Of a stretch of DNA of 64,000 bases, positions 5,340 to 36,942 are shown piece by piece; positions within the stretch are counted from its first letter, which is position 1, and each line of letters begins with the position of its first letter. Source of the stretch: Candidatus Heimdallarchaeota archaeon (lineage in GTDB: Archaea; Asgardarchaeota; Heimdallarchaeia; Heimdallarchaeales; Heimdallarchaeaceae); contig DXJF01000011.1 of NCBI GenBank assembly GCA_019057375.1, positions 58,922 through 122,921 on the forward strand, written 5' to 3'. The position numbers were made by a program, and so were the translations under genes. Below the pieces are notes generated by a model. That model saw only the letters and a program-made list of their open reading frames with translations. It made no database searches and had not been told where the DNA came from.

Positions 5340-6275
5340 TTAGAAGCATTTTACATTTTCACAGTAGTTTCTTATTGCAATAACATTATGAAGATACAAT
5401 TTTTCTATAACAGGCCTTCCAGGATACTCATAATTTTCTAATCTCAATGATCTTAATTTGTCACAAAAGTAACAGTCACATTTAGTTAAAGCATCATCAC
5501 TAAATCTATGTTTAACAAGATTTTTATCTACAAAGTATAGTTCAGAAGTTAAAGCTCTCGCAATTGTACTATCAAATGAATCAATGTTAGCACATCTACC
5601 ATAACATTTGATCTGATCAAGGTTCACTATTCCAAAAGCATGTAAGAAATTTTCCTTTGTAATTTGTCTAGAATATTTTATTGTTTCACAATACAGATTG
5701 TTTTTTCTTTTAATTGGTATGAGTCCTCCTCGAGCAAAAATGGTTATCCCATGATCTTTTTCAAAATCATATAAATTATCCATAGTTTTACTAGTTACTC
5801 CTTGGATTACTCCTATTACCTTGCTCTTTGGAAAGCGGTCTAGAGTTTTTATTACATTTTCTTTCATATTTTTTATTTTCTTTTTTACTATAGTATCAGA
5901 ATCCATGGGTAGAATAATTTCATCAGGGACTACTAGTAAATCAGGGTCCATTAATTCATATCCTTCAAGAACATCGTTAATTGGCAAAGTGATTTTGGAA
6001 TAATCTTGATTAAATGATTTTCCCTTAAAAAATTTAAACCATTCCAGCATGAATATTCCTGTATCCGCAAAAATTTTTGTTTTTTTGGGGAAACCATTTT
6101 CTCTCATTAATTCTTTTAATGTCATAGATTTGCTATGTAGATCATATATAATACTATCATTTCTTAATAGGTCAAAAGCTGTTAATAATATTGATTCAGT
6201 GTAATCCCATTCTATGAAAATTGGATCCCAAAACACTGGATTTGATAAAAAGTAGTGCTTTGGGACATATTCCAT
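5340..6275 (-). CDS. stand-alone tRNA-guanine-transglycosylase-fold protein (DpdA-like/TGT-like)
   Basis: It carries the TGT zinc motif CDCYFC-x25-H, a DTGIFM motif (compare DSGGFQ) and a DSFDS motif (compare FDCV). It is only 311 aa and has no PUA domain. Confidence 0.6.
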   Translation of the reverse strand: MEYVPKHYFLSNPVFWDPIFIEWDYTESILLTAFDLLRNDSIIYDLHSKSMTLKELMRENGFPKKTKIFADTGIFMLEWFKFFKGKSFNQDYSKITLPINDVLEGYELMDPDLLVVPDEIILPMDSDTIVKKKIKNMKENVIKTLDRFPKSKVIGVIQGVTSKTMDNLYDFEKDHGITIFARGGLIPIKRKNNLYCETIKYSRQITKENFLHAFGIVNLDQIKCYGRCANIDSFDSTIARALTSELYFVDKNLVKHRFSDDALTKCDCYFCDKLRSLRLENYEYPGRPVIEKLYLHNVIAIRNYCENVKCF

Positions 6276-6674
6276 AACATCTCACACAGACAGTTAAACC
6301 TGTTTAATACAGATTTTGTATTGCATAATACTGCCTAATTGAATATTTAAAGTTGAGAAAATACCTCTTTCGCCTTCTTTTATCTAGATACTTACTTATG
6401 GTTTGTTTAACTGTTTTTTTCATCTTTCCTAAAATGATATTATTAAGCTGAAAATTTGTTGATAGAATATCACTTTGTAAAACTCCCGACAAAAAATTTA
6501 TCTAACTTAGAATGTCGAAATTGAGCGATTACAGAATGAAATTTCACGTTTTTTGTCGGTGTAAAGCGTACTTTTCGATAGTTCAGCTGTTTCAGCAGAA
6601 AATAATGGTTTAAAAGCTAATTTTTACCGCATCTAGAATAAAAAATACAATAAAAAAACTGTTGAAAAAGTACT

Positions 6675-6890
6675 CTATCTTCTAATCATTTTGTATATTG
6701 AATAAGCTATTCCAAAACTCAGTAAACCAATAGCTGAGTATACAATAGCTGAATAGTTTATTAGAAGTCCTTTGGCTAGAAGTAGAATCAGAAAGGCAAT
6801 TGTAGGTATTCCAATAAAACAATTGAGAATAGCAAATTTACTGATTTTCTTTTTCTCCCTTTCATCTTCGTGATCATAGCTTGGAATCAA
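6675..6890 (-). CDS. small membrane protein (2 TM)
   Basis: Two hydrophobic helices follow an acidic/basic N-terminus. Confidence 0.35.
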   Translation of the reverse strand: MIPSYDHEDEREKKKISKFAILNCFIGIPTIAFLILLLAKGLLINYSAIVYSAIGLLSFGIAYSIYKMIRR

Positions 6891-10962: not shown

Positions 10963-12534
10963 TCAGTCATCTAGAGTTATAAAATCCGTAAGAAGTTTCT
11001 GTTGAGTTGAAAATGTTCCATCTTTAAGTCTCTTAATATCATCTATTATTCTTGAAATTGTTTTTCTGTTTTGATTAGTAATTTTATGTTTTAATTGTTC
11101 AACAAGTTCGTCACTTGAAATTAAAACAAATTTCTTTTCAGAGTTATTCTTTGTTTGTGATTCTACGTACAAGCACCAGAATTTCACATTTTTGGCATAT
11201 TGAGGATAAATAACTAAGTCTTTATGTGTTAATGCTAAGGGGGATTTTTTGACTTCTATAATTTCTAATGAACCATCAGGCTCTTCTATAAGTATTTCGG
11301 GTAATATCCAATTTCTTTCTTCAACCTCTGGCGTCTCAATCTTTGGTTGCCACTCCCATTTTTTTCCCTTAAATAGTTGTTGCGCAATTCTGTGACAAAT
11401 CCTTTCCCATAGATATCCTATTATCTCTACACCACCCACTAGATTACAAGAAGGACACCCCGATTTGTTATGGACTCTATTGTTGATTCTTGCTACCCAC
11501 ACATGTTTAGAATTTTTCGAACATTGCCACCACACTTCTCTGTGAGAACCTCCAATTACTTCTTCTGGTGTCAATCCTTCATTTTTTGTTGGATGCCACT
11601 CTTTTGCTATTTCTGGATAAAGAGTTTGTAGTGAATTAAATGGAGATAATCTTCTATGAGAACATATTGGACAACCTGTTTTATATGGCCCAGTTCTATG
11701 ATATACTTTAGAATCCCACACATGTTTAGAATTTTTCGAACATTGCCACCACACTTCTTTATCAGATCCTGCTATTATTTTTTCAGCTGTAAGTTCTCCA
11801 TTTAGTGTTGGATGTAGTTCTTTAGCTATTTCAGGAAATTTTGTAGCAAGAGAATTCGTAACTGAGACTTTTTTATTTGCACAACAAGGACATCCATAAC
11901 CTCTTCTAGTTCTACTATCAATAACTGCTCTCCAAATATGATCTGGTCCTTTATCACAAATCCAATAAACTCTTCTTCCTGAACCAGGAGATACTTGATT
12001 TGGAAGAATCCCTCTATTCTTATCATAAAACCATTGAGCACCTATTTCTGGGAACAATGCTTCTAAAGATTCTTCTTCTAAAACTAGTTTTCCTGAACAA
12101 TATGGACATCCTGATTTATTTATACCGCTTCTATCATTTATTTTAGCAGGCCAGTTATGTTTAGGGTTTTTCAAACATTGCCACCACACTTTTTCACTAG
12201 ATTTCATAATTGCGTTTTCAGGAGTAAAATCTCCATTTTTTGTTGGATGCCATTCAGCTGCTACTTCTGGAAAGTTGATTGCTAATGAATTTGTAACTGA
12301 AACTCTTTTACTAGCACAAAATGGGCATCCTGTAATTTTTTTTACTCCGGTTCTGTTGTTTGGACTAGTTGGCCATTCATGGTCTGGTCCTTTCTCGCAT
12401 TTCCACCAAATTGGTTGTTTGGAACCATAGGAAATATTTTCGGGTTTTAAGTTTCCATTTTTTGTTGGATGCCATTGTTTAACTAGTTCAGGAAAATCAG
12501 CAATAGTTTTAGTTTCAATTTTATTCTTTGACAT
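10963..12534 (-). CDS. five-fold treble-clef zinc-ribbon repeat protein with C-terminal PD-(D/E)xK-like nuclease domain
   Basis: It has five repeats of WHPTKNG-x-L-x-PE...VWWxC...H-x-W...GCPxC, resembling the 'probable zinc-ribbon' DUF4379-type repeat. The C-terminus has EEPDGSLEIIEVKK, a PD...ExK pattern. Confidence 0.65.
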   Translation of the reverse strand: MSKNKIETKTIADFPELVKQWHPTKNGNLKPENISYGSKQPIWWKCEKGPDHEWPTSPNNRTGVKKITGCPFCASKRVSVTNSLAINFPEVAAEWHPTKNGDFTPENAIMKSSEKVWWQCLKNPKHNWPAKINDRSGINKSGCPYCSGKLVLEEESLEALFPEIGAQWFYDKNRGILPNQVSPGSGRRVYWICDKGPDHIWRAVIDSRTRRGYGCPCCANKKVSVTNSLATKFPEIAKELHPTLNGELTAEKIIAGSDKEVWWQCSKNSKHVWDSKVYHRTGPYKTGCPICSHRRLSPFNSLQTLYPEIAKEWHPTKNEGLTPEEVIGGSHREVWWQCSKNSKHVWVARINNRVHNKSGCPSCNLVGGVEIIGYLWERICHRIAQQLFKGKKWEWQPKIETPEVEERNWILPEILIEEPDGSLEIIEVKKSPLALTHKDLVIYPQYAKNVKFWCLYVESQTKNNSEKKFVLISSDELVEQLKHKITNQNRKTISRIIDDIKRLKDGTFSTQQKLLTDFITLDD

Positions 12535-12598: not shown

Positions 12599-12619
12599 TC
12601 TGATCGAACCAATTTCCAT
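12599..12619. repeat. second piece of the duplicated 23S trailer (matches 20389-20408 with one 1-nt indel)
   Basis: tctgatcgaaccaatttccat compared with tctgacgaaccaatttccat. Confidence 0.75.
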
Positions 12620-12830
12620 ACACATACTATGAAGCTCATCCAAGTTTATTATAACTTGAATAGTCTTGACGAGTAGTTATCTCGTTCCCCTCGTATGTGG
12701 AGAGGGGGAATTTGATTTTAACAATTGCTCACCCTTATCTTTTACATTTTTTGCTGCATTTATGTGAGTATTCACCATTTTACCACACTTTTTACATTTT
12801 GCGATGTCATAAGAACCAATTTTTCTTTCG
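12599..12830 (-). ncRNA. candidate omega-RNA (reRNA) of the TnpB-like gene, with its guide in 12599-12619
   Basis: By analogy with IS200/IS605 TnpB, the scaffold would overlap the gene's 3' end. Hairpins are CCCCTC/GAGGGG (12687-12707) and CAAGTT/AACTTG (12642-12659). Homology to the rRNA trailer begins abruptly at 12619. Confidence 0.3.
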
Positions 12831-14578
12831 ACTTTTCCTCCACAACCATTATGTTTTGTACTTGTTCCTCTTGGATTAACATAAACAAGTTTAACCTTAT
12901 ATCCAAGTATTGAAGACGCTAATAATACTGCTTTTTCAAATATTTCTTGATTATCAGGCATATTGTATATTGCTTTAGCTAAAGCTCCTCTTTTTCCTCT
13001 AGGATCTATTTGAAAGTCTTCGACACAAAGTAGATTACTCTTATTTTTTACAATTTCAGCAGCAATGAAATGAGTTGCAAAATTTTTAATTTCTTCAAGA
13101 ATGTTTTTCCTTCTTCTGTAGACTCTGTACAATTCTCCCTTAGTCTTAACATACCCTCTAGTGTCTTTCTTCTTTCCCTTATTCGTTAAACTATAGCTCA
13201 ACTGAGGGATAATAACATTTGATAGTTTATTGTATTTTCTAGCTAGAAGCAACAAATTCTTTGATAAGGGCTCTTTGTTAGAAAGCGCAATCATATGTTC
13301 ACTAACTCGGTTAATATCTACTCCTATGGATTTTACTTTCTTTGTACTCCCTTTCTTTGACAATTGCTTGAGAAGTTTTGTACTAAGAAACTTACTGGGA
13401 GTTCCTTCTATAATAACAGAAACTCTAACCTTATAGCTAGGTGAACTGTTGCTGCGAATGAGCAATGATCTAATTCGAGCTCCTTTGTTAAGATATTCTA
13501 AGATTTTCTTTGAAAAGATAAGCTTACATGTAATTCTAGGGAATCCTCTAAGAACGAATCCCAACTCGAAATACCCATCTTTTCTTGCAAGTTCCGTCAT
13601 AACTTTTGAACTACCAGGTCTGAGAACAACATGTTTTGGACACATAATTAGTTGGATAGGTAATCTTCCTTTCTTTTTCTTTCTAAATGGTGGATGAACA
13701 ATTTTAGTTGGGTGAGTTTTCTGAATTATTTCTATAACAGTCTTCTCTAATGTAGAGTAGAGTGCGAAGATCACTATTGCTCTTAAAGCAGAAAATAGTC
13801 TTCTATTTTTCTCACCTATTGATTCAGCAATTCTTTTACTTAAAAATTTCAAGCTTTTCCAACGAGAAGGATGTACAGTATTATTCCACGAAGTAAGAAG
13901 AGGTGCTACAATATCCGCCTTTAAAGCTAACAAACGTAAGTTTTCTAGAAACACATTTGTTTTTGAATTGATTGGTTTTGATGTTAGTTCTAGGCATTTG
14001 GACTTATTACACTTCTGTATCGCTCTTTCGAATTCTTTCTGTGCTAAAAGTGGAAGCATAGTGTTGAATTTTAATCGTTGATTGCAAAATTTGTCTATTT
14101 GCCTTCTTGTACTGGTTAGTACATTGATTACATATAATCTCTTTACCTTCCATCTGTAGATAAGAATACTTTCAATTCTAGGACTTCTTCCAAAAATATA
14201 CCATTCAATTGCTTGCTCTTTCCAATTCGACATTAAATCGAAAAATACTTCAACTTTCCTCTCTAAGGTAACTGTGCCTTTGGCTGCTAAAAATAAGTAA
14301 GTATATGCACTATCAGCAATACTAGGACTCTTCTTTGTGATTCTTTTGATGTTAGTTAAACCCACCATATTCGGCATTTTGGGTTCATTTCTTGCAATTG
14401 ATAATGCAGCGTTTATTGCCTTTTTATCATGAATTAAATCTTCTTGTCTGACTTGCAAACCTTTTACTCTTTGGTTAGCTTCTTTTTCTTGTATTCTACG
14501 TTTCTCTCTAGTACCCTCAAACCTAACACCCATTTGATAAGTGCGAGTGACTAATGTTTGCTTTGTTTGAGAGGACAT
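12677..14578 (-). CDS. tnpB: TnpB-like RuvC/zinc-ribbon protein with a long N-terminal extension (633 aa)
   Basis: RuvC-I is IGVDINR, RuvC-II is LLCVEDFQ, the zinc ribbon is CGGK...CKKCGK, and the C-terminal block is NTHINAAKNV. No tnpA is adjacent. Confidence 0.8.
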   Translation of the reverse strand: MSSQTKQTLVTRTYQMGVRFEGTREKRRIQEKEANQRVKGLQVRQEDLIHDKKAINAALSIARNEPKMPNMVGLTNIKRITKKSPSIADSAYTYLFLAAKGTVTLERKVEVFFDLMSNWKEQAIEWYIFGRSPRIESILIYRWKVKRLYVINVLTSTRRQIDKFCNQRLKFNTMLPLLAQKEFERAIQKCNKSKCLELTSKPINSKTNVFLENLRLLALKADIVAPLLTSWNNTVHPSRWKSLKFLSKRIAESIGEKNRRLFSALRAIVIFALYSTLEKTVIEIIQKTHPTKIVHPPFRKKKKGRLPIQLIMCPKHVVLRPGSSKVMTELARKDGYFELGFVLRGFPRITCKLIFSKKILEYLNKGARIRSLLIRSNSSPSYKVRVSVIIEGTPSKFLSTKLLKQLSKKGSTKKVKSIGVDINRVSEHMIALSNKEPLSKNLLLLARKYNKLSNVIIPQLSYSLTNKGKKKDTRGYVKTKGELYRVYRRRKNILEEIKNFATHFIAAEIVKNKSNLLCVEDFQIDPRGKRGALAKAIYNMPDNQEIFEKAVLLASSILGYKVKLVYVNPRGTSTKHNGCGGKVERKIGSYDIAKCKKCGKMVNTHINAAKNVKDKGEQLLKSNSPSPHTRGTR

Positions 14579-14712
14579 AGTGTAACTGTTAATATTATAT
14601 GTACTTTCATTTATAAACTGAGAAAAAAAGATGATTCTTCTTGAATTATTATTGTATTACTTCTGTACCATTTATTTTTGTTTTTTTACTCTTAATAAAC
14701 AGTACATATGTT

Positions 14713-17172
14713 CTATGATAATTTTAACCAGAATTCAAAATCATCTAAAACTTTGATGTGTTTGTCTCCTACGATTACATCTGCAAGAATTTCCAAAGGA
14801 ATTTCCTCGTTATGTCCTTGGCTTTTAGCTTGAATTATATTCAGAGTGAAATCCCAATCATATGACCTTTTATTATCTAATAACAGTTTCTTGATCTCCT
14901 TTAAACCTTTTATTCTAATCTCATCGTCATTTTCATGAGCATAAAGATAGAAGTAGTACTCTAATTCAATCGATTCTTTAAATCTTGATTTTTCTATGTA
15001 CTTCATAGCTTTATCTAGGTATTCAAACCCTTCTTCCCTTCCTTGAGAAAGAAGTAAAGATGCATAATTAATCAAGTTATTTGCATTTTCAGAATCTATC
15101 TCATTTGCTTTGTTAAAATACTTCTCAGACATTTCAAGATTCTTGAAATCATGATACATTAGCACTGCAAGTTGTCCCCAAATCTCTGCATTCTTAGGTT
15201 CAATTTTTATTGCTTTCTTCAAATGGGATTCAGCCTTTTTATAATCATTATAAATCTTAGACACGAAATATGAATAATTATAATGACCAAATGCATTGTT
15301 TGAATCTAACTCAAGTGCCTTCTTATACATCTTTTCTGATTCTGAATAGCGTTTCACTCTTTTCTGCAGGAATATAGCATAATAAACATAGTACGTAGAA
15401 TTTTCTGGAGATTTCTCAATTGCCTCTTTTAGGTATCTCTCCGCTTTTTTATAATCTCCTAATTTCTCTGAATAAAAATATCCTATATCTAGAATATATT
15501 CAGCATTTTCAGGATTCAAAACTAGTGCTTGATTATAATATGAATTAGCTTTTTTGATATCCTCTCTTGAATAAGCTAGAAACCTTGCATAATTTAAAAC
15601 TCCACGTGAATAATTAGGATTTGTATCAATTGTTTTTTCAAAATACTCCTCCGCTAGATTATAGTTTTTCCGAATTTTTTCTTGAAATAAAGCATAACCT
15701 TCTAAAATTGTTGGCATATTAGGAGATATTTCTAAGGCTCGTTTGTAATACTCTTCAGCCTTTTTATAGTTTTCATCATCCTTGACAATTTCCCATAAAA
15801 AGCCTGCGTAATTACTTAGGTTTGCAGAACTGTGTGGGTTCAATTCCAATGCTAATTTGTAGAATTCTTCTGCTAATGTGTGATTCCCCACTATTCTATG
15901 CAGGAAACTTGCATAATTTACTACTAAAGCTGGAAATTTTGGGGCAACAGATAGTGCTCTTTTGTATATTTTCTTTGCCTTTTCGATGTTTAATGTAGAC
16001 TGTAGGAAGAAAGCATAATTAGTTAAAAGATTGATATTATTTCCAAAGATTTTCAGACCACTTTCATAAATGTCAATGGCTTTATCAGGATTCTTCCATT
16101 TCCATTCGGCAGCCTTCAACTCAACGTATTTCCAAGCTAGTAATTCTTCGCTTAGTTCAGATAAAGCAAACGAAAAAGCTACTGAAAATTTCTTTTGTTC
16201 CTTCGGATTTTTTTGTTCAATATCTTTTGGTATCTCTCCTAATCGTTCATAAAATTGATTAATAAGTCCTTCAATTCTTTCTTTGTCTGGAAGTTTCAAA
16301 GAAAATTCCTTTAGAATCAATAGCATTAGTTCATCAAAATCTCTATGCTGTATCCATACACCATCCCTATCTTTAATCCAATTACCTAGTTTGGTGTTTG
16401 GAAACTCATTTCCTATCCAATAAACTCCCCATGGAAGAGCGCTTTCGGGGAGTTTTGAAAGAATTTCGGCTATGCTCCCGTCATTTCCACCATATCCCAT
16501 GAATATAAGTCCTGTATCAGAAAGAACCTTTTGAATAGCTACTTTAGTGTTTTTTGCAAGAGTCTTAGTTTCAATTTCTGTATTTTTTGGCTCAAGTCTA
16601 GCATCACCATGAAGTTTAATGACTAAAGGTTTCACCCTCGAAGATCTTACAAAACCTGCTAAAGTGTCATGCACAATTACAAGTGGTTTTTTATTTGTGT
16701 ATAGATATAATGCATCTGCAATTAAATCATCAAAATTGACAGTCAAAGCTACATTACAATGCTTTCCATATTTTTCATCTGACATTAAACAAGAAAGGAC
16801 ACCATAACCAAATCCTGGATCTTTTTTATCAATTATGTTCTCAATTTCCTTTTGCCTTTCTTCAGGTTTATGAAATAATAATTGAATTATTTTACCATAA
16901 AATAAAGCTGCTTGAGAGTCATCATAATTTGGGAGAATCTCTTTGATATTTTGAAGAGAATAATCTGCATCTTTTCCTTTTCTCTGCCTAATTAATCGAA
17001 AGAGCCATCTTTTTGCGAGTTCTCCTGCTGTTGGAATACCTGAAGAAACAGAACACCCCGCTCCAAGAAAGAACACATATTTGCATTCTTCATAATTATC
17101 CATATTGTATTTGATTTTTCTTATGAATTCTTCAATATCCATCTTTTTTATTTCTATATTTGCTCCTTCCAT
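14713..17172 (-). CDS. SIR2-family (SIR2_2-type) domain fused to about 11 TPR repeats
   Basis: The N-terminus has FFLGAGCSVSSGIPTAGELA, TVNFDDLIADAL, VIKLHGD and FMGYGGNDGSI. The C-terminal 450 aa consists of repeated A-x3-Y-x-K/R-AL-x3-P TPR units. Confidence 0.78.
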   Translation of the reverse strand: MEGANIEIKKMDIEEFIRKIKYNMDNYEECKYVFFLGAGCSVSSGIPTAGELAKRWLFRLIRQRKGKDADYSLQNIKEILPNYDDSQAALFYGKIIQLLFHKPEERQKEIENIIDKKDPGFGYGVLSCLMSDEKYGKHCNVALTVNFDDLIADALYLYTNKKPLVIVHDTLAGFVRSSRVKPLVIKLHGDARLEPKNTEIETKTLAKNTKVAIQKVLSDTGLIFMGYGGNDGSIAEILSKLPESALPWGVYWIGNEFPNTKLGNWIKDRDGVWIQHRDFDELMLLILKEFSLKLPDKERIEGLINQFYERLGEIPKDIEQKNPKEQKKFSVAFSFALSELSEELLAWKYVELKAAEWKWKNPDKAIDIYESGLKIFGNNINLLTNYAFFLQSTLNIEKAKKIYKRALSVAPKFPALVVNYASFLHRIVGNHTLAEEFYKLALELNPHSSANLSNYAGFLWEIVKDDENYKKAEEYYKRALEISPNMPTILEGYALFQEKIRKNYNLAEEYFEKTIDTNPNYSRGVLNYARFLAYSREDIKKANSYYNQALVLNPENAEYILDIGYFYSEKLGDYKKAERYLKEAIEKSPENSTYYVYYAIFLQKRVKRYSESEKMYKKALELDSNNAFGHYNYSYFVSKIYNDYKKAESHLKKAIKIEPKNAEIWGQLAVLMYHDFKNLEMSEKYFNKANEIDSENANNLINYASLLLSQGREEGFEYLDKAMKYIEKSRFKESIELEYYFYLYAHENDDEIRIKGLKEIKKLLLDNKRSYDWDFTLNIIQAKSQGHNEEIPLEILADVIVGDKHIKVLDDFEFWLKLS

Positions 17173-17219
17173 TAATAACAGATATTAATTTTCAGCTATA
17201 TAAATCTGTGATAATACTA

Positions 17220-19937
17220 TTAGAGATGTTTTATTGAATCTTCATTTATTTCTCTTTTACATTTGGGACAAATAGTTTTAACTTTCATCCATTCTTGAAG
17301 ATGATTGTTATGAAACGTATGACCACAATCTATTATGTAGACTAAATTTTCTTCTGCTACCATGTAATTCAAACATATTTCACACTTTCTTGTTTTCTTT
17401 CCACAGTTTAAACAAATAAGTGGTCCTCCATCCTTTACTCTTTCAAGCAAAGCATCGCAGAAGTAACAGAATAACTTTTCATCTTGCTTCTTAATATTGC
17501 CAACAGTGCTTTTCTCTTCAGTGATTTTTACCTCTTTCTTAGGATTTTCTTGTAGTCTACTCTGTTTAATTTTTCTGAGTACTACTCCTTGATTTGTGAA
17601 AAACTCTGCAAGTGAAGGTTTGCTCTGTTCCTTTTTCTGCTTTCCAAATCTCATATATCCTATAAACAATATGAAAAATAATCCAGAAACAATAACTGAC
17701 CACGGAAATAGCTTTCCAGAATTATTCTTCTTCAGATAGCTGAATAACAACCATCCAGATATAAAGAAAACATATTTTGCATATCTGAAAAGGAACTTGT
17801 TTTTACTATGAAGATCTTTGTAGAAGGTATTTGTAGAAGAGTTGACTACTACTGAAAACCAAAAGAAAGTAGAAGCAAATAGTATGGTTGTAAAAACATT
17901 GAACGAGATTTTACCCAAGATAACAAATTCAAACCCAGTATTATCACTGTTAGCTATTGAAACTAATCTCCCAAGAATCAGAAAGAATCCCACGTTCTTC
18001 AGGATTACAAAAACAGCTGCTAATCCCAGTAATACTTTTCTCATGTTACCTAAAATACTGAAATTGAAGAAACGCTCTGTTTTAATATATCCTCCATTGA
18101 ATTGAAGTTCGTATTCTTCATCATCAAGTTTTACTTTAGCATTCCTGTTTGTTTCTTTGTTTTTCTTTTCTAAATGTCTTACTAAAACAATTAATGCTAT
18201 TGCATCTAGAATGAGACTAATGCTCATTAGAGTTGGTAATGAAGGTTTGAAAGGTTTTGAGTCACTGCTTGGGTTAGGAAGTTCAAAGGGGTTCGTCGGT
18301 GTGACAACTTCTTCAGAAGTAGCTGCGAGTCTGTAGCTAAGCTCCCCTATTGTAACCGATAAACCTTCACCATAGATTGATAATATTATTTCTATTTCTT
18401 GATAACCTTGGTTAATTTCTATGATTACTCTATCATTGATCGTTTGTTTATCATTGAATGATTGAAAGAAAACCTGATTATCGTTTATCTTAATTCGCAG
18501 ATTGAATTGATCAACAGAAGAGTAAAATTCGTTGTATAAATTCAAGGAGAAAGAAAGATTGAAGGTAGTTGAAGAAGAATCAAAATAGAAAACATCTGTG
18601 AATTTAACTGTTAAAGGTCCTGTAATTGATGTTTCATAAGTTTTTGAGGAGACCATCGTTTTTTCTAGAGTGCTATTTTCATCAAGTATAGGAACGGGCT
18701 CTATTTCAATAGTACTGGTATTGAGTAGGTAAAAAATACCCTCTCCTGTTGCTATTCCATAAACCCGAAAAGCAATATTAGAGGAGTAATTTACAGTGTA
18801 GGTATCAATAATACTTTCAGGATAGCTGAAATGAATAGCCCCTGAATAGATGACATCGGAATCCGAAAGAATTTCATAATTTAAAATAGGTAAGATTGCT
18901 GAACCTATATAATCATAATATAACGAAATGAACAAATTCTGTTCACTAATGCTAGAAAAAGGTTTTAGTGATGATAAATCAAAGGAATGGTCTACTGAAG
19001 GGCCATCGCAGGAAAACCAATCAAAAGATTCTTCTGGAATTTCGTCTTCGAGAAGTTGGAGTTCTCCAAACAAAGCTATATTAGTAAACCATATCTCATC
19101 TACACCTAGGTTAACACAGAAATAGAAACGGATTATGTTCGTCCCCTGCTCTAACGGAATAGAAAAAGAGACAATAACAAAAGGAACTTTAGAAAAACTT
19201 GTAGTAGCGATGATTGTGTTATTTATTTCTACTTCTAAATATCGAGAAAGGGCACTAAAGGAATTTGTATTAAAAGAAAGAGTTACGTTTAAAGTGGTGG
19301 AACCATTGATTGAATAAACTGCTGTTTCAACATAATCACTTCTGACACCTGAAAGATCTCCATAATAGCCTATTTGACCAGGATTACAAGGAAGGGAGGT
19401 TAAATTCTTATCAAGAACAGGAATTGTAATTGGTTCTATTGTTGATGAACTTAATATTTGAATAGCGCCAGAATTAAGGATATTCGAAGTTTTACCTTCA
19501 CATGAAATAACAATAATCATTGAACCGATGAAGTTTTGAGGATAAGAAAATGATTTAGAAATAGAGTGTTCATTAGAATCCTGATAAATACGGTTAATGT
19601 TAATTTCTACTTCAGTAGTGTCCAAATACAAAATAATCGTTAATCCATTTGAGTCAGTCCTATCACCAGAAAAGAGAAAAAATATAGTTAAACTATTATA
19701 TTCTTGAAGTTCAAGATTGACTAGTTCAAAAGTAAAATTTTGTTTTACAGAAGTTGAGTCATAAGAATACAGTATATTTTCATCTATTATAGTAGAGCTA
19801 TAAATAGAAGGGGGATTAGGAACGTTATTTTGATTTCTTGCAATAGCTAAAGAACTAGTAAAACAAAAGAGTGTTAACACTAATAACATGTTTCTAGTTG
19901 TGTTTTTCATTATCAGTTTTATAATCCGAAAATTCAT
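17220..19937 (-). CDS. giant-family surface/membrane protein with cytoplasmic zinc ribbon plus RING-H2-like finger
   Basis: It has a signal peptide, an extracellular region of about 550 aa paralogous to 30317..35260, and multiple TM helices. The C-terminus reads CEICLNYMV-x-CGHTFHNNH-x-CPKC. Confidence 0.7.
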   Translation of the reverse strand: MNFRIIKLIMKNTTRNMLLVLTLFCFTSSLAIARNQNNVPNPPSIYSSTIIDENILYSYDSTSVKQNFTFELVNLELQEYNSLTIFFLFSGDRTDSNGLTIILYLDTTEVEININRIYQDSNEHSISKSFSYPQNFIGSMIIVISCEGKTSNILNSGAIQILSSSTIEPITIPVLDKNLTSLPCNPGQIGYYGDLSGVRSDYVETAVYSINGSTTLNVTLSFNTNSFSALSRYLEVEINNTIIATTSFSKVPFVIVSFSIPLEQGTNIIRFYFCVNLGVDEIWFTNIALFGELQLLEDEIPEESFDWFSCDGPSVDHSFDLSSLKPFSSISEQNLFISLYYDYIGSAILPILNYEILSDSDVIYSGAIHFSYPESIIDTYTVNYSSNIAFRVYGIATGEGIFYLLNTSTIEIEPVPILDENSTLEKTMVSSKTYETSITGPLTVKFTDVFYFDSSSTTFNLSFSLNLYNEFYSSVDQFNLRIKINDNQVFFQSFNDKQTINDRVIIEINQGYQEIEIILSIYGEGLSVTIGELSYRLAATSEEVVTPTNPFELPNPSSDSKPFKPSLPTLMSISLILDAIALIVLVRHLEKKNKETNRNAKVKLDDEEYELQFNGGYIKTERFFNFSILGNMRKVLLGLAAVFVILKNVGFFLILGRLVSIANSDNTGFEFVILGKISFNVFTTILFASTFFWFSVVVNSSTNTFYKDLHSKNKFLFRYAKYVFFISGWLLFSYLKKNNSGKLFPWSVIVSGLFFILFIGYMRFGKQKKEQSKPSLAEFFTNQGVVLRKIKQSRLQENPKKEVKITEEKSTVGNIKKQDEKLFCYFCDALLERVKDGGPLICLNCGKKTRKCEICLNYMVAEENLVYIIDCGHTFHNNHLQEWMKVKTICPKCKREINEDSIKHL

Positions 19938-20288
19938 TTATAAACTGAGTAAAACCATATTTACTATATCTGAATCTTGTTGGGTTTAAATAGATATTTT
20001 GCATTTCATTATTGAGATAGATGTTCGTAATTACATTCCTTAAGTCTTTAAGATCAAAGAAAAAAGGGGGACCTATTCTAGAAGAGATTCTACTTATTGG
20101 TATAGCAGTTCTTGTCTTTGCAATAATCTTTGCACTAATTTTTAGCTTAATAGATTGGTCTACATCTCCTTTTGAAGAACTTTTCAAGTGAAGAGTTTTT
20201 TCTTTCAATTTCAAGAAACTTAGACTTTTAGTGGGTTTATAAGGGGAATTACTATATTTTCTTTGAAGCTAGCAATACGCAAGATAAC

Positions 20289-20408
20289 ATTTTAGTCGAT
20301 GAACCTCTTTCTATAGCTAGCTTCAATATTTTTCTTAACAAGAATTTTTATTGTAAACCAAAATTAGCTGACAATAACTCTCCTAGAATCTGACGAACCA
20401 ATTTCCAT
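20289..20408. repeat. 23S rRNA 3' trailer (master copy of the repeats at 10055-10153 and 12599-12619)
   Basis: Direct comparison with the two repeat pieces. Confidence 0.9.
20364..20388 (-). promoter_or_regulatory. 23S processing-stem, 3' half
   Basis: Perfect 25-nt reverse complement of 24014-24038. Confidence 0.85.
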
Positions 20409-20749
20409 TTTTCCTAACTACGCTTGAGCAATTAGTGATTGTGGGCTAAACATCTCGCCGAAGCTCGACGCGTACACCCCAATTCTATCAACCGGATCTT
20501 CTTTCCGCGCTCTCATCTATATCGAAGGTTACTGTCACCAGTCCCCTTATAGTGATACAGAGTGGGTGACTCGTTTCGAGAGTAGCTTCGAGCGTTGATG
20601 CATTCCGCTCTTATCTACGAGGGCTTAGCTACCCGGCGATACCCTTTAGGATAACCGGTACACCAGAGGCCCCAGCCGCCTGTTCCTCTCGTACTGTGGA
20701 GACTTTACTCTCAATCACCCGCCAGCACCATCAGATAGAATCCAACCTG

Positions 20750-20904
20750 TTTTGCGTGAATTTAAGCCCGAGTATTGATCTTCGATAGAAGGGATTTCCC
20801 GTAAGGGGGGTTTACAACTATCAAAGACTTTTACATACTTGGATGAAGTTCAATTGAAGTATTACTACTATACTTCTACAGAACTCCACTATAGCTTAAA
20901 TCCA
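20750..20904 (-). other. about 155-nt AT-rich insertion (putative intron) in 23S, between GACCGTTGTGAGA and CAGGTTGG
   Basis: The universal GTGAGA|CAG junction is interrupted. The insertion ends pair with each other (ATTTAAGC/GCTTAAAT). Confidence 0.7.
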
Positions 20905-21052
20905 TCTCACAACGGTCTAAACCCAGCTCACGTTCCCTTTTAATGGGCGAACAACCCCACTCTTGGCGGCTGAATCACCACCAAGCTAGGAAGAGCCGAC
21001 ATCGAGGTAGCAAGCCGTGAGGTCGATGTGAACTCTTACCCACGACAACTCC

Positions 21053-21441
21053 GTTCAGGGCTGCGCTTGCGCTATGCGCACATCGGCTTTAAGGATCAGT
21101 TGTCACCTGGTATAACGACATAGGCAGTTACATAATCCTTAACCTTATCTTCATGTCCTCACGCTTATTTTTGGCTCTCCATCTTTCGTGTTTATTTAGG
21201 GATTTATCTATTCTAAATGGATTTGTGACAGAAATTAGATTCACTCTGCTCAAGTTTTGTAGCCTTTTAATGGCGAAAACTTTCGTTTCCTCACGTGGAA
21301 GAAAGACTGAAGCTATAATTAAATTCACTCAATTTTACTTTTCTGCCTCGGAAAAGATGGACTTTATCAATAAGCGTTACAGACAGAGAGCACTCTTTGT
21401 GATAAACAATCACTTCTTCGTGATAAACACTCAGAAGCGCA
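21053..21441 (-). other. about 389-nt insertion (putative intron) in 23S, after GGGGTAAC
   Basis: The universal GGGATAAC|AGG...AAGAGTTCACATCGAC block is interrupted. TGCGC/GCGCA pairing sits at the two junctions. Boundaries are accurate to within a few nt. Confidence 0.65.
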
Positions 21442-24013
21442 GTTACCCCTGGAGTAACTTTTCTGCCACCTCCGCCGCCTACTAATGGCACTGCGAAGGA
21501 TCGCTAGGCCCTGCGTTAACATCTGCGAACTGTATTGGTGAGTTCACAGTCAACCGAGCTTTTGCCCTTGCACTCTTCACCGGATTTCTGTCCCGGTTGA
21601 GCTCGGCTTTGGGCCCTCTTGATATCTTTTCAAGAGGCTACCGCCCCAGTGAAACTGCCAGGCAGGGGGTGTCCCCCTCGCAAGAGGTAAGTCGTACCAA
21701 TGCGCAAGGTCAGTATTTCAAGTTCGACTCCCCTACATCCCGGAGAATGTAGGATCAGCATCTCCTGACTATGCTATGCATGCACACCAATACAACAGCC
21801 CCTGACAGCAGTAAAGCTTCACAGGGTCTTCTCTTCCCGATGGTGCGCTCCAGACTGTTCGCTGGACTGTGGGTTCAGTAGGCTTCGGGTGGAGACAGTG
21901 GGCACCTCGTTGGTCCCTTCATGGACGTCTGTAATTAGCAGACAAGGCATTTGCCTACCTTAAGAAGCTCATAGTTAGCTCCGGCGTTTACTGGGTCTTA
22001 GCCTGGTTGAACCCAGGTTTCAATCACCAGCACCGGCCAGGATTCACTAACTGTACTAAGGCTTTCGCCCTTGCAGTTAGCTATGTTTTTATTAAACAGT
22101 CGGGTGCCCCTAGTCACTGCGACCTGGTAAGGCATACACCTTCCCAGGCATCCCTTATACCCAAGGTACGGGACTAATTTGCCGATTTCCTTCACCCGAG
22201 CTCCCCTAACACGCTTTAGCCTTCTAAGCTAGCCACACCTGTGTCGGTTCTGGGTACGGTCACGCGTAATCGTTCTCTTTGCTTTTTCATGGGCTGTTGG
22301 GGTTGATGGCAGCCAGCAACCTATGGCCGGCCTCTTCATCTATTCTTCTGGTTCTCACCTTAACGGTTCTTCCCAGAATTCTATAATTTAACTAGGATAT
22401 GCTCCTAGGCCACCTACCCACCAGCGTTAGCTCAGAGCTTGCGTCGCCGCGTCTATACGCGTGGTACAGGAATATGAACCTGTTTCCCTTTCGAACGACT
22501 CGTTTTAAGATCGTCCTTAGGACCGACTAACCCTTGGCTGACGAACAGTGCCAAGGAACCCTTGGGCTTTCAGCGATGAGGATTCTCACCTCACTATGCT
22601 CCTACTACCACCGAGATCTGCAAATCTAATCGGTCCACTGGGAATCACTCCCCAGCTTCTGCCCAACCAGATCGCCCCCCTACCTGAGACTCTTGCGGAG
22701 TCCAAATGGGTATCGGGACCCGGTTTAGCCCCGTCCATTTTCTGAGCCCAACAACTCGATGAGTAAGCTGTTACGCTTTTTTTAACGGATAGCTGCCTCT
22801 AAGCTTACCGCCTCATTGTCTTAGTCGTTGGACGTCATTCTGTTTAACATTTAACCGGGATTTAGGGCCCTTAACCCATTGTAGGGTTGTTCCCCTTTCG
22901 GCCATATCCCTTGCGGATACGCGCCCGTCTGTCGCCTTCTACAGCGCTTGCAAGTTCGGAGTTGGAAGGGAGGGTGAGGATTTCACTCCCCAGAACCTCC
23001 CGTCCGTAGCTCTACCTCACAAGCCGCCTTCAGCGACGCTATCCTGTGGTGATACTTCGGGGGGAACCAGCTATCAGCAGTTTAGATTGGTCTTTTGCCA
23101 CTATCCCCAACTCAGAGGAATGAATTGCATATCAATAACCCTTCAGGCCTCCACGCTCCTTTCGAAGCGCTTCACCTTGGTCAGGGATAGATCAACTGCT
23201 TTCGGGTCTTACACCTGTGACTTCACGCCCTTATCGGACGTCGCGCCTTGCCGAAGCTGCGCGCTGGTCGCTTTCGCTACGCCACCGTATTAACTTAGGC
23301 TTGCCACAGACATAAACTCCTCGGCCCGTGTTTCAAGACGGAACGGATAACTCTGGTCCTCTCAGCTCGTACTACCACCTCACGATGGGTTCCTTCACCG
23401 AGACTCTACCCTTTCAAGCCATCCACGTCTGTTACCATGTAGTTTCAGGGACTTTTCACTCTCGTATTTCGAATACTTTTCAACTTTCACTCACGTTACT
23501 AGTGCGCTATCGGTCTAGGGGAGTATTTAGGCTTGGGAGTTAGTCCTCCCATATTTGCGCGACAAATCCAAGCCACGCTAGTCTTGATACTACTAAGCCG
23601 AGCGCTTACGTTTACGGGGTTATTACCCTCTATGACGCCCCTTTCCAGGGGCCTTCAACTTCACGCTTTCGGTCTATGTTGTAGTCAAAACACCACATCT
23701 ACCTTAATTTTTCAAAAAAGGAATTCGGTTTGGCCTGTTCCGGTTTTACTCGCCGTTACTACCGGAATCACAATTGTTTTCTTTTCCTGCAGGTACTTGA
23801 ATGTTTTGGTTCCCTGCGTTCCCCGCCATTACTGGCTGTTACAGTTTATTAGACTGTAACCGGAAATCCGATTCGGGAATCTGTGGATCGTAGACTGTCT
23901 GCGTCTTCCCACAGCGTTTCGCCGCTTACCGCGCCCTTCATCGGCTCCCTAGCCGAGTCATCCACTACATGGCGTATGCATAGTGTAGGTTACTCTAGAA
24001 ATCAGTTTTCGCC

Positions 24014-24038
24014 TTCTAGGAGAGTTATTGTCAGCTAA
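24014..24038 (-). promoter_or_regulatory. 23S processing-stem, 5' half
   Basis: Perfect 25-nt reverse complement of 20364-20388. Confidence 0.85.

Positions 24039-35431: not shown

Positions 35432-36942
<1,511 letters not shown>

Follow-up and report, generated by a model that had tools for sequence, protein, structure and literature searches.

A solo TnpB-like gene of a Heimdall-group archaeon with a predicted guide that copies part of the 23S rRNA processing stem

TnpB is the ancestor of both Cas12 and Fanzor, and its known fates range from selfish restorative homing, through service as CRISPR effectors, to the dead repressors of bacteria termed TldRs. These last lose their RuvC catalytic residues or are truncated at the C terminus, their guides are directed to a conserved host site that is typically a promoter, and conserved guide together with fixed synteny is the hallmark by which they are recognised. 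Cas12k of the type V-K CRISPR-associated transposons reportedly homes to tRNA genes via a short delocalised guide, and in 'cleave and rescue' (ClvR) there is a synthetic gene-drive design whose layout also deserves attention here. Like free-standing homing endonucleases such as SegB of phage T4, which belongs to a tRNA gene region (PMC13565253 treats both SegB and intronless homing), that design has the nuclease gene adjoining its target gene, a resident allele that differs at the recognition site, and a target that is essential and conserved.

How does a TnpB-like gene in 64 kb of Heimdall-group DNA, the whole of that stretch being called the window below, compare with these? With the TnpBs of IS607 and IS200/IS605 elements (ISDra2, ISFba1) it shares the fold, WED-REC-RuvC-zinc ribbon, a predicted scaffold that extends over the gene's 3' end and has a pseudoknot beside the guide, and a guide that would be the right-end flank. 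It differs from them in being without transposase, in single copy and in conserved synteny, in having a guide conserved between genomes, in its 633 aa with a REC lobe of ~270 aa, and in the His that replaces the third Asp. The ORF with RuvC-I, RuvC-II and zinc ribbon that a sequence-only reading had described is indeed present (Table 1), with D421 in the RuvC-I motif GVDINR, E520 in the RuvC-II motif CVEDF, and a complete HCCC ribbon, H576-x2-C579...C595-x2-C598. Its sole Pfam match is PF07282, Cas12f1-like TNB (E 9e-8, 32.6 bits vs a gathering cut-off of 26.3). The NCBIfam cut-offs were missed (guided_TnpB 32.8 vs 100, IS607_TnpB 22.3 vs 350, IS200_TnpB 32.1 vs 425 bits) because the family is too divergent for those models. 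The AlphaFold model (pLDDT 85.4, pTM 0.70) has as its top Foldseek matches Cas12f, ISFba1 TnpB, ISDra2 TnpB and Fanzor2 (E 3e-9 to 1e-4), and, going by this modelled fold, the protein is a very divergent TnpB/Cas12f-fold member of the TnpB / OMEGA superfamily. In the same model a WED strand (aa 10-20) is followed by a helical REC (helices from aa 24 to 293), the rest of WED (aa 308-392), RuvC and the zinc ribbon, so that of the ~230 extra N-terminal residues noted earlier the size stands but not the N-terminal add-on, the excess being an enlarged REC between WED strands. The last fifth of the protein is a little nearer another subfamily, which may faintly point to recombination among paralogous elements. 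Ahead of the gene, the TATA-like box TTTATAAAT is kept among homologues (upstream regions of 18 loci were compared) and is its putative promoter.

Table 1. Features of the locus, with positions in the window
Feature	Positions	Strand	Basis or remark
TnpB-like gene, 633 aa	12677..14578	-	ORF, Pfam, family alignment, AlphaFold model
Putative promoter, archaeal TATA-like box TTTATAAAT	14609..14617	-	~31-39 nt 5' of ATG
Stem P1: CCCCTC 12702-12707 / GAGGGG 12687-12692	12687..12707	-	alignment and pair counts
Stem P2: ACGAG 12681-12685 / CTCGT 12669-12673	12669..12685	-	16-locus pair counts
Hairpin P3: TTCAAGTT / AACTTGGA	12639..12660	-	alignment and pair counts
Conserved scaffold 3' tail GCTTCATAGTATGTGT, right end of element	12620..12635	-	19 loci
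Predicted guide segment ATGGAAATTGGTTCGATCAGA, DNA just past right end	12599..12619	-	boundary from homologous loci
Resident near-cognate site ATGGAAATTGGTTCG-TCAGA, 5' neighbour GTTAGGAAAA	20389..20408	-	sequence, leader/trailer cofold
23S (LSU) rRNA gene, 3578 nt	20412..23989	-	Rfam RF02540, 2462 bits
25-bp outer helix of 23S processing stem, trailer strand; leader partner 24014-24038	20364..20388	-	cofold
Genes from resident site to TnpB gene	14713..19937	-	Pfam, synteny
RING-finger membrane protein, 905 aa	17220-19937	-	syntenic with TnpB gene in 10 loci
SIR2-TPR protein	14713-17172	-	also present in L003
58-nt conserved hairpin: GAAGCTAGC, ~40 nt, GCTAGCTTC	20266..20323	-	recurs in relatives' loci
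Tentative left junction GTTAAGAAAAAT, near copy of GTTAGGAAAAAT at 23S end (20407-20418)	20328..20339	-	9/10 core match

At the RuvC-III position the protein reads NTH604-I-NAAKNV, and phmmer aligns H604 with the corresponding Asp of CnCas12f1 (8hr5; vnthinaaknv / vnadynaarni), which bears out the His first seen by eye; the canonical D-E-D triad is thus absent from the 633-aa protein, the series being D421, E520, then H604. Does this signify an impaired nuclease, as was at first thought conceivable? The family argues otherwise. His stands there in 106 of 112 clade representatives, His or Gln in 111 of the 112, and it is there too in relatives that adjoin an IS607-type serine recombinase, while D421, E520, H604 and the full zinc ribbon are conserved to an equal degree in the immobile subfamily and in transposase-carrying relatives. 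TnpB branches with a D-to-H 'rearranged RuvC-III' are already published, and their authors infer retained activity (PMC10691335), so the clade-wide His counts against 'canonical' status and not against superfamily membership. The published RIIIr (D-to-H) and archaeal Ser-/RIIIr- branches likewise have a clade-wide His and are largely archaeal, while the largest His branch, RIIIr-4, is without the zinc finger that the window family keeps, a comparison made with the family mapped onto no named branch (PMC10691335). Guides related to tRNA or rRNA are not mentioned in that paper (Altae-Tran et al. 2023), in which 'trna' occurs 0 times. With His clade-wide, published as presumably active, and accompanied by D421 and E520, a dead binder in the style of TldR loses its main argument; and since the three RuvC positions are under selection in a subfamily lacking transposase, the protein is probably still an active RNA-guided nuclease.

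Hairpins over and after the stop codon had also been pointed out, and covariance folding of homologous 3' regions bears them out. The scaffold is made up of the last ~30 nt of coding sequence and the 57 nt past the stop, with its 3' limit at 12620; both its covariation and the scaffold/guide boundary were defined over 16 homologous loci. P1 (helix 1; 96.9% paired, with 2 pairs changed on both sides) falls within codons of the conserved C-terminal peptide PSPHTRG, and its loop strand CACATAC (12693-12699) is the partner of GTATGTG (12621-12627) in the tail, the resulting pseudoknot lying next to the guide with pair counts over the loci of AU 7, GC 7, GU 2 for 126-196 and GC 9, AU 2, GU 3 for 122-200. 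The stop codon (12677-12679) sits in the loop of P2, all 6 of whose pairs have both-sided changes over the 16 loci; P3 (helix 4; 85.7% paired, with 3 both-sided changes) is variable and missing from four homologues. Taken together, P1, P2, P3 and the pseudoknot have 92% paired cells vs 35-46% in slid controls, and 14 both-sided pair changes vs 2-5. The tail motif GCTTCATAGTATGTGT occurs once per locus in 19 loci and once in the window. What overlaps the 3' end of the gene is a structured guide RNA, a predicted omega-RNA, with a sharp boundary where conserved sequence gives way to variable and a guide starting 1 nt past the pseudoknot. An abrupt switch of sequence 57 nt past the stop had caught the eye earlier, and it equals this boundary, which the 16 homologous loci set independently.

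That the DNA just outside the right end is the guide, as was proposed, is consistent both with the boundary so placed and with what the flank copies. Within 12619-12599 a guide of 16-21 nt would have 12605-12619 identical to 20394-20408, 15/15 from its nt 1, followed by an extra A in the flank and then TCAGA, as at 20393-20389, and so the supposed copy of the 23S trailer is real down to its 1-nt indel. The match begins 4 nt past the mature 23S end (the Rfam LSU model ends at 20412) and lies 7.8 kb from the guide on the same strand. The leader/trailer cofold places the matched piece on the trailer side of the 23S processing stem, in its inner, bulged part, as the exact segment from the mature end to the 25-bp outer helix, whose own trailer strand, 20364-20388, has no duplicate at the TnpB flank; similarity in the window is confined to the ~20 nt that a guide would span. 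RGAAAA stands directly before each of the two copies. A prefix match of >=15 nt elsewhere in the window is found for 0.6% of random window positions, an empirical p of 0.006 that was computed before taking the rRNA-boundary position into account. The guide is identical in four assemblies of one strain, the only carrier of the 23S-type guide.

Neither tnpA nor a CRISPR array is present in the window by inspection of ORFs and by Tandem Repeats Finder, which gives only four tiny repeats, just as the first reading had it; tnpA is missing from every close-subfamily locus too, and tblastn found no second TnpB copy in the 64 kb. Several known classes can be set aside on such grounds. A complete IS607 would have its serine-recombinase tnpA at the locus, where there is none, and the gene is single copy in the window; the right end lacks the terminal GG, and the context is not the TAM reported for IS607, AGGAG/GAGGG (PMC13565253). 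Type V CRISPR-Cas (Cas12) is rejected with the lack of an array in 64 kb and with neighbours that are unrelated genes. Type V-K has in common with the window family a TnpB-derived protein and a short guide matching a tRNA gene beside the element, and differs in that the family is without Tn7-like tnsB/tnsC/tniQ and CRISPR repeat and keeps its RuvC residues. Fanzor, for which the criteria are a host that is a eukaryote or giant virus and a RuvC-II Glu relocated beside the zinc finger (PMC13565253), is rejected as the host is archaeal (its rRNAs are) and E520 has the place usual in prokaryotic TnpB, ~56 residues ahead of the zinc ribbon.

The neighbours are, by Pfam, a DUF4379 protein, the SIR2-TPR protein and the RING protein. 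A 58-nt hairpin, for which there is no Rfam family, opens the syntenic block hairpin-RING-SIR2/TPR-TnpB; in L003 and L058 it lies upstream of the RING gene, whereas L012, L013, L015, L020 and L023 have it upstream of the TnpB gene. The tentative left junction is a weak match (p about 0.01-0.09) 4-5 nt ahead of the hairpin, where L003 synteny starts, and left-flank paralogy was not found at the corresponding place in L003. Genomes with more than one recovered locus have one or two paralogous copies, each in conserved synteny. RING synteny in 10 loci, tRNA-Cys downstream of TnpB in 9 loci and the lack of tnpA mean that the gene is immobilised and vertically inherited; by these comparisons of loci it is orthologous to, and in synteny with, solo genes elsewhere among Heimdall genomes, which disposes of a recent homing into the trailer. 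The window departs from its orthologues exactly at the scaffold end, and only the sequence past the scaffold differs.

The more distant relatives give the ancestry. Directly upstream of TnpB in at least nine of their loci is a protein with MerR-HTH and Resolvase, the domains being Pfam-confirmed for two of these, so that IS607 replaces IS200/IS605, at first thought the relevant family; on gene order the clade is an IS607-type lineage, of which the window copy is no complete IS. Several copies in differing flanks are evidence of recent movement, and four of the relatives (L028, L039, L040, L052), in contrast to the window gene, have near-identical proteins, judged by inspecting the last 130 residues, with four different flanks. 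Are relatives likewise associated with rRNA flanks? With structural-RNA genes they are, strikingly, but instead of rRNA these are tRNA-Cys, tRNA-Asn and tRNA-Pro, with guides that copy the tRNA-Cys D-arm, the tRNA-Pro anticodon arm and the tRNA-Asn T-arm, five independent lineages in all having guides that copy essential structural-RNA genes. Pairwise identity of guide nt 1-16 is 75% in one set (9 loci) and 96% in another (3 loci), compared with 28-34% for nt 21-60, and the proteins of these guide-conserving orthologues are only 56-86% identical; we infer purifying selection on the guide within orthologous groups. An intact copy of the tRNA gene is near TnpB, adjoining in most loci and 638 nt off in L018, and this neighbour matches the guide at 12-15/19, the TAM-proximal stretch of identity being in most loci no longer than 4 nt. 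In the tRNA-Cys group the guide fits its own tRNA-Cys at 13.3/19 and foreign ones at 14.2/19, with the best foreign allele at 16-18/19 (permutation p = 0.036, which is weak and ignores phylogeny). Searching +/-10 kb around the loci gave no perfect target for the conserved tRNA-like guides, and the 5' contexts of candidate sites vary by subfamily (CAGACCGN, AAGCTT, AAAAGA, GGAAAA), with no common TAM seen. Short duplications recur: L035 splits one duplicate, and its empty paralogue is 80% identical over 158 nt; in L014, L026 and L003 a short duplication has one copy split by the element and the other intact nearby; the tRNA-Asn group splits one copy of a direct repeat of ~50 nt; and in the window such splitting is only tentative. 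At two further loci a tRNA-Cys copy is broken, again no more than a few nt from the anticodon-stem/D-arm junction. By reading of its sequence, the tRNA-Pro site of L026 begins at an apparent exon/intron junction.

What might such a gene be for? Our tentative preference, held at somewhat short of an even chance, is for an immobilised, probably active nuclease whose guide is fixed and directed at the sequence of an essential RNA gene, acting in homing or in a manner like 'cleave and rescue'. It is the conserved guide, the intact RNA gene nearby and the poorer fit to the own than to the foreign tRNA-Cys that lead to it. A landing of the element or block in a short tandem duplicate of the target would have made the right-end flank into the original guide. 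Protein and omega-RNA would then form an RNP that recognises double-stranded DNA with ATGGAAATTGGTTCGATCAG beside a short 5' motif, and would cut the structural-RNA locus wherever a sensitive allele occurs, on other copies of the chromosome or on incoming DNA. The own chromosome would be spared by a mismatched allele, which in the window is the 1-nt deletion past 15 matched nt, and recombinational repair would copy the module. On this reading the module would do by guide RNA what a free-standing homing endonuclease does by protein recognition, in a naturally occurring 'cleave-and-rescue' arrangement, with cleavage, allele polymorphism and drive all predictions from sequence. The fuller version, a natural Asgard (Heimdall-group) RNA-guided 'cleave-and-rescue'/homing system with a competent His-variant TnpB, a selected guide and a linked immune copy, is decidedly doubtful. 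It would need selection to keep the guide matched to wild-type alleles (tRNA D-, T- or anticodon arm, or 23S processing stem), a linked structural-RNA copy immune because mismatched, and a module that spreads or persists by destroying module-free chromosome copies. Two counterpoints come from the window itself. Its resident 23S trailer retains a perfect 15-nt TAM-proximal match, and if that suffices for cleavage the genome targets itself, which favours binding only or no action; and the 'rescue' is 7.8 kb from the nuclease, not adjoining as at the tRNA loci.

Unlikely, yet deserving serious attention, is that the RNP is functional and the 23S-like flank a mere record of a rearrangement or insertion that joined the right end to a decayed trailer duplicate, with no present contact with the rRNA locus and with the module persisting otherwise, for example by restorative homing among chromosome copies. 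The divergence of the window from its orthologues right at the scaffold end is what a right-end-specific rearrangement predicts, and in the mobile-type relatives L030 and L035 the flank is interrupted host sequence whose paralogue happens to be nearby; the slight nearness of the C-terminal fifth to another subfamily and the lack of a common TAM also accord with it. What it leaves unexplained is conservation of the guide amid randomised adjacent flank, and five independent lineages with structural-RNA-copying guides, while the restriction of similarity in the window to ~20 nt of guide length is predicted by guide selection and not by uniform decay.

More improbable is a domesticated binder like TldR, an RNP holding the 23S 3' boundary by a 15-nt seed without cutting and so modulating transcription, for example by blocking rRNA read-through into the hairpin-RING-SIR2-TnpB genes in an autoregulatory loop; its guide, of the same sense as the rRNA, would have the template strand as its pairing partner. 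The likeness is considerable, the gene being a transposase-less tnpB descendant in fixed context with a guide that is conserved among orthologues and matches host sequence elsewhere, which is the TldR hallmark. Four assemblies have guide and near-cognate site stably together on a single chromosome, the two match only in part (15 nt and a bulge), and the target is upstream of the module's own genes in the same orientation. Against that, TldR by residue loss is rejected, since D421, E520, H604 and the full zinc ribbon are as conserved as in transposase-linked relatives, with the catalytic positions and C-terminal domain intact and the host archaeal. No promoter target was found for the guides, the matched sites being tRNA gene bodies or the 23S trailer, and imperfect; and the site in question is a processing stem at a gene's 3' end, where a tight roadblock would deprive pre-23S of its trailer helix. 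At the tRNA loci, 12-15/19 with a TAM-proximal run of mostly 4 nt is too little for binding.

Coincidence in an AT-rich genome is a very improbable source of the 15+5-nt identity to the trailer: further 14-16-mers of the 2.5-kb region do recur in the window, and a 19-mer of the trailer version is found within coding sequence of two viral contigs, but the match starts from guide nt 1, which 16 homologous loci place independently of it, the empirical p for such a prefix match anywhere in the window is the 0.006 given above, the partner is within 4 nt of an rRNA gene end, and all this fits the family-wide pattern of guides copying pieces of structural-RNA genes. Scarcely credible is action on RNA, with the guide mimicking the trailer strand and pairing with the 23S 5' leader in pre-rRNA, or with tRNA-Cys or tRNA-Pro, so as to interfere with or exploit splicing endonuclease processing at bulge-helix-bulge sites, for although the match falls in the bulged inner part of the processing stem, the L026 site starts at an apparent exon/intron junction and the guides at tRNA-Cys and tRNA-Pro run antisense to the tRNA, the orientation is inconsistent, being sense at the 23S and tRNA-Asn loci, G-U pairs lift guide/tRNA complementarity only from 13 to 15 of 19 (a hand count for L002 only), and characterised TnpBs, with most Cas12 relatives among the fold-search matches, act on DNA.

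Returning to the nuclease with a fixed guide, an archaeal lineage of the group closest to eukaryotes has long kept solo tnpB genes with catalytic positions intact, omega-RNA covarying and guides that are conserved between genomes and copy tRNA pieces or, in the window, part of the 23S processing stem. This suggests an RNA-guided system that resides in the host and is aimed at its essential structural-RNA genes. If true, it would account for the short duplications and the broken copies of tRNA genes that recur around the loci. The enzyme, a compact and divergent His-variant with a defined scaffold/guide boundary, is directly testable, and if its guides are used they would represent a new natural use of RNA-guided nucleases, as a drive, an addiction module or a regulator.

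Where does the guide of this solo TnpB-like gene begin, and what does it copy? Sixteen homologous loci have in common, 3′ of the stop codon, the motif (A)GCTTCATAG(T/C)ATG(C/T)G(A/T), past which the sequences of different groups are unrelated. An alignment of the final 170 nt up to the end of this motif in the 16 loci supports four helices: P1, within the codons for a conserved C-terminal peptide, P2, whose loop in the window holds the stop codon, P3, a variable hairpin, and a pseudoknot between the P1 loop (CACATAC in the window) and the last scaffold bases (GTATGTG). Paired cells amount to 92%, against 35–46% with the partners slid, two-sided changes affect 14 pairs, against 2–5 in controls, and a single pseudoknot pair is AU in seven loci and GC in seven. 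The omega-RNA hairpins of an earlier, sequence-only reading are accordingly real, covarying in four helices across 16 loci, and the right-end boundary it drew is in the same place as the scaffold end that those loci set, 12620, with the guide starting at 12619, 57 nt past the stop. No Rfam family fits the scaffold (RAGATH-18 included, if it is in Rfam 15), only chance-level hits being returned. All compared loci have a TATA-like box ~35 nt upstream of the start codon.

The match of this flank to the 23S trailer that had been noticed, with one 1-nt indel, is there. The fully guide-matching sequence, with the extra A, is ATGGAAATTGGTTCGATCAG, and the resident trailer allele has that one base deleted after 15 matches. 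Similarity is limited to ~20 nt, either side, and folding of the 23S leader and trailer yields a 25-bp outer helix. What the guide matches is precisely the bulged inner part of the stem, from the mature 23S 3′ end to that helix; the window guide, on this comparison, copies the inner strand of the 23S processing stem. An exhaustive ungapped scan of both strands of each locus with guide nt 1–16 found no perfect local target, the best local matches being 11–15/16 in the close subfamily and in the mobile-type locus L035. Nor was a common TAM found, as the 5′ contexts of candidate sites vary by subfamily and comparison of left-end flanks was uninformative. A 19-mer of the trailer version is present in two IMG/VR viral contigs; a viral target was nevertheless set aside, as on inspection the 19-mer is inside a seemingly terminase-like coding sequence with no RNA gene, and was judged chance.

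Positions of features in the window and in homologous loci (L numbers)
Feature	Sequence	Position	Strand	Particulars
TnpB gene	window	12677-14578	-	633 aa
Guide	window	12619-12599	-	ATGGAAATTGGTTCG-A-TCAGA
Trailer copy	window	20408-20389	-	ATGGAAATTGGTTCG-TCAGA; begins 4 nt past LSU model end
Outer helix	window	24014-24038 x 20364-20388		25 bp
Left junction, tentative	window	20339-20328		GTTAAGAAAAAT
LSU rRNA gene	window	20412-23989	-	3578 nt
SSU rRNA gene	window	35432-36942	-	
RING-finger membrane protein	window	17220-19937		905 aa; upstream of TnpB gene
SIR2-TPR protein	window	14713-17172	-	819 aa
DUF4379 protein	window	10963-12534	-	
DUF4379 repeat difference	L065 vs L066/L067	~5840-6680		~620 nt
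58-nt hairpin	window	20266-20323		GAAGCTAGC, ~40-nt loop, GCTAGCTTC
58-nt hairpin	L003	4251-4308		
58-nt hairpin	L058	251-308		
58-nt hairpin	L012	9836-9892		
58-nt hairpin	L013	1273-1329		
58-nt hairpin	L015	9872-9928		
58-nt hairpin	L020	9858-9914		
58-nt hairpin	L023	1449-1504		
Scaffold remnant	L015	3640-3810		
Scaffold remnant	L020	4840-4976		
tRNA-Pro(TGG)	L026	4948-5047	-	intron-containing
tRNA-Pro(TGG)	L008	4827-4926	-	same gene as in L026; contig ends 4938
~50-nt block	L011	12105-12153		consensus with L014 and L025: AAGCTTGyTGTTTAGTGGwCmTTATT..AAGGGArTGCTTGCCTTAC
~50-nt block	L014	7299-7347		
~50-nt block	L025	3311-3360		
Mobile-type right end and paralogue	L030	7990 vs 13150		also L031, L041

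The surroundings are AT-rich (33% G+C) and archaeal, with the 16S and 23S genes unlinked, 11.4 kb apart. Against a 2987-position archaeal model the LSU rRNA has ~590 nt of insertions (expansion segments). Between the RING and TnpB genes, in the window and in the homologous locus L003, is inserted a gene whose product has an N-terminal SIR2 domain like those that accompany short prokaryotic Argonautes (PADLOC Aga_SIR2, E 2e-35) and a long TPR array. Given its position, the gene probably encodes a defence-type NADase and is carried along in the block of hairpin, RING, SIR2-TPR and TnpB. In the DUF4379 protein five treble-clef zinc-finger repeats precede a C-terminal domain; same-strain assemblies that are identical elsewhere differ in the copy number of its repeat unit, and gene callers overlooked the ORF in assemblies with altered repeat number. 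The conserved 58-nt hairpin, in the window 65 nt past the guide-like trailer site, is in several Heimdall genomes 5′ of the RING gene or directly 5′ of the TnpB gene, with an AT-rich TATA-like stretch ~25–30 nt upstream in L012, L013, L015 and L020 and a weaker one in the window. It fits no Rfam family, hits being at chance level, and may represent either a gene for a small RNA or a left-end structure of the block. Upstream of L012, L013 and L015 its 5′ arm had at first been taken for the 5′ part of a tRNA-Cys gene in sense orientation, a reading that was dropped.

Are other guides of the family also derived from structural RNA genes? It had been expected that homologues would sit at rRNA flanks, and the expectation held in that structural-RNA genes adjoin them, but these are genes for tRNA-Cys, tRNA-Asn and tRNA-Pro and not for rRNA. 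In nine loci of one orthologous group a tRNA-Cys gene is present on the opposite strand, 44–74 nt past the guide start in the seven measured, about as far in L023 judging by coordinates, and at 638 nt in L018. Other groups adjoin tRNA-Asn or an intron-containing tRNA-Pro, and in L011, L014 and L025 the neighbour is a conserved ~50-nt block. Pairwise identity over guide nt 1–16 is 75% in the tRNA-Cys group and 96% in the three loci of L011 type, while over nt 21–60 it is down to 30–34% and 28–30% respectively, with protein identity of 56–86% and 60–68%; the L011-type sequences are unrelated beyond guide nt 16. This conservation of the guide where what follows it has diverged argues that, in the orthologue groups, it is under purifying selection, which ordinary restorative homing does not predict since there the guide is any flank of the element.

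The orthologue guides, so conserved, are by these alignments derived from structural RNA. That of the tRNA-Cys group, xGCAT...TTGCTAA, is antisense of the D-arm, that of the tRNA-Pro locus is antisense of the anticodon arm and starts, by sequence reading, at the exon/intron junction, and for tRNA-Asn loci the flank, counted from guide nt 2, is a direct ~50-nt copy of T-arm, acceptor end and trailer. An antisense tRNA-Asn guide was considered and dropped for that reason, the T-loop palindrome TTCGAA being misleading. A short duplication (period ~50–110 nt) surrounds the element, which interrupts one of its copies and has the intact gene close by; left-flank similarity is significant in L014, L026 and L003 and clear in L035. 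For the window the left junction is tentative: GTTAAGAAAAAT is similar to GTTAGGAAAAAT from the end of the 23S gene (p ~0.01–0.09) and directly precedes the conserved hairpin where L003 synteny starts, and the equivalent place in L003 has no such similarity. With this left-junction similarity weak in the window and absent from L003, the idea that the whole 7.7-kb block was inserted as a single unit is at most tentative. In the nine tRNA-Cys loci a guide matches its own tRNA-Cys at 12–15 of 19 positions (mean 13.3) and foreign ones at a mean of 14.2, the best foreign allele reaching 16–18; a diagonal this low arises in 3.6% of random-pairing permutations, a weak signal with phylogeny ignored. 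The differences are mostly at D-loop positions, where the tRNA may vary.

Some further features of these loci deserve record. In both L015 and L020 a solo scaffold remnant carries a guide resembling tRNA-Cys, followed by a spacer and by the 3′ half of a tRNA-Cys gene in antisense, cut off no more than a few nt from the anticodon-stem/D-arm junction at which guide-like sequence would start. Both loci resemble scars left by breakage or insertion occurring there more than once. The tRNA-Pro(TGG) gene of L026 and L008 goes unreported by ARAGORN and, in L008, also by Rfam at gathering score; partial copies of its 3′ end (TGGTGGCCGGACCGTGATT) are 2.2 kb and 4.8 kb upstream. The ~50-nt block, 90–150 nt downstream of the guide, matches it at 14/16 positions, with no match in Rfam (L011, L014) or in a tRNA search.

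Among 5.8 billion proteins searched there are 20 close homologues, 45–59% identical and all ~640 aa, almost solely from Heimdallarchaeota MAGs with one labelled Thorarchaeota, and an exhaustive profile search gave 580 representatives. More distant members, at 32–45% identity, were recovered from metagenomes. Six representatives (P0041, P0044, P0050, P0060, P0064, P0067) are of 1200–1800 aa with the TnpB-like part C-terminal or in several matched stretches, and may be fusions, read-through tandem genes or non-archaeal relatives. At least nine distant-member loci have a 190–210-aa gene immediately upstream, for two of which Pfam MerR-HTH and Resolvase domains (IS607-type tnpA) were confirmed; four proteins that look near-identical by eye, as compared over the final 130 residues, each have a different flank, unrelated to the others; and the solo element of L035, set against an empty paralogous site, is seen to be a clean insertion of 2.1 kb, whose left flank has 80% identity over 158 nt and whose right flank opens with the guide. 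These features place the family, by comparison of loci, in an IS607 lineage with mobile members. In the mobile-type L030 the right end meets an antisense gene at its codon 23, and 5.2 kb downstream is an intact paralogue of that gene (89% identical over 198 nt), a further case of an element in one of two nearby paralogues. As had been claimed, the 64-kb window has no tnpA and no CRISPR array, nor a second TnpB copy. The protein is unchanged in four public assemblies, the RING gene is upstream of the TnpB homologue in nine other loci, synteny with orthologous loci ends exactly at the scaffold end, and the window copy is an immobilised, vertically inherited one. A chimeric origin of the gene was rejected, as sliding-window identity drifts only slightly towards another subfamily over the last ~120 residues, insufficient for recombination.

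The 633-aa ORF was confirmed. Pfam recognises in it only the Cas12f1-like TNB zinc-ribbon domain, NCBIfam TnpB models score far under their cut-offs and PADLOC gives weak Cas12f matches. A confident AlphaFold model was obtained (20 homologues as input; pLDDT 85.4, pTM 0.70), whose top structural matches are Cas12f, ISFba1 and ISDra2 TnpB, Cas12p, Fanzor2 and other type V effectors. A WED strand (aa 10–20) is followed by an all-helical lobe (24–293), further WED strands (308–392) and RuvC with the inserted zinc ribbon. As the helical lobe lies between WED strands, the extra residues, earlier taken for an N-terminal appendage, are instead an enlarged REC lobe. This predicted TnpB-fold protein, of IS607 lineage and without transposase, goes with a covarying scaffold and a precise guide boundary.

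D421 (GVDINR) is invariant across the family and E520 nearly so. The His said to replace the RuvC-III Asp does so, His604 aligning with that Asp of CnCas12f1, but the nuclease impairment suggested from it does not follow. N-T-H-x-N-A is in all the IS607-lineage relatives discussed here, transposase-linked ones included; among 112 representatives with the motif locatable the position is His in 106 and Gln in five; and the same change is known in a number of large TnpB branches, of which some are nearly all archaeal, where it was read as a rearranged yet active site (PMC10691335). His604 is thus a clade hallmark, and no mark of impairment in the window copy.

What could such a protein and guide be for? 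The RNP would recognise DNA bearing the guide sequence. It is possible, if doubtful, that the match is purely a historical flank, the record of a past rearrangement or insertion with no present role at the rRNA locus, but this leaves the conserved guides of the orthologue groups unexplained. That the RNP binds, in the manner of a TldR, at the 3′ boundary of the 23S is unlikely, even if a roadblock to read-through into the module's genes is conceivable; an active nuclease is preferred to a dead binder, since the immobile subfamily retains the zinc ribbon and all three RuvC positions, just as transposase-linked relatives do. Chance identity of guide and trailer is very improbable: a prefix match of ≥15 nt elsewhere in the window is found for 0.6% of random window positions, and the match begins at the boundary set independently by homologues. 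Pairing at the RNA level with the 23S leader or tRNAs, for which the antisense guides might speak and the direct tRNA-Asn copy does not, is hardly credible. The idea of a BHB intron or a circular omega-RNA was also discarded, published archaeal circular omega-RNAs having no BHB motif (PMC12558985) and guide orientation here being inconsistent across loci.

The TnpB fold, the omega-RNA principle, the His variant and exapted TnpBs are known already. The literature searched described, for archaea, no match between TnpB guides and tRNA or rRNA loci; nor did it contain any archaeal transposase-less TnpB lineage with conserved guides, any guides drawn from tRNA genes or rRNA processing stems, or a recurrent layout of split duplicate plus intact mismatched copy. 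A nuclease beside a mismatched target copy is also the layout of the synthetic cleave-and-rescue drive. The favoured active nuclease, its guide fixed on a constrained part of an essential gene and a mismatched copy of that gene beside it, would have the layout of a free-standing homing endonuclease, as in the intronless homing of T4 SegB at tRNA genes, where the nuclease is beside its target gene (PMC13565253). This reading is weakest for the window itself, where the resident site is 7.8 kb from the TnpB gene and retains the 15-nt seed, and one strain is known. Under it, module-free chromosome copies or incoming DNA would be cut and then repaired from a module-bearing copy, and homing or cleave-and-rescue of this kind would explain guide conservation, tight gene linkage, the mismatch in the resident allele and the presence of copies that are broken or duplicated.
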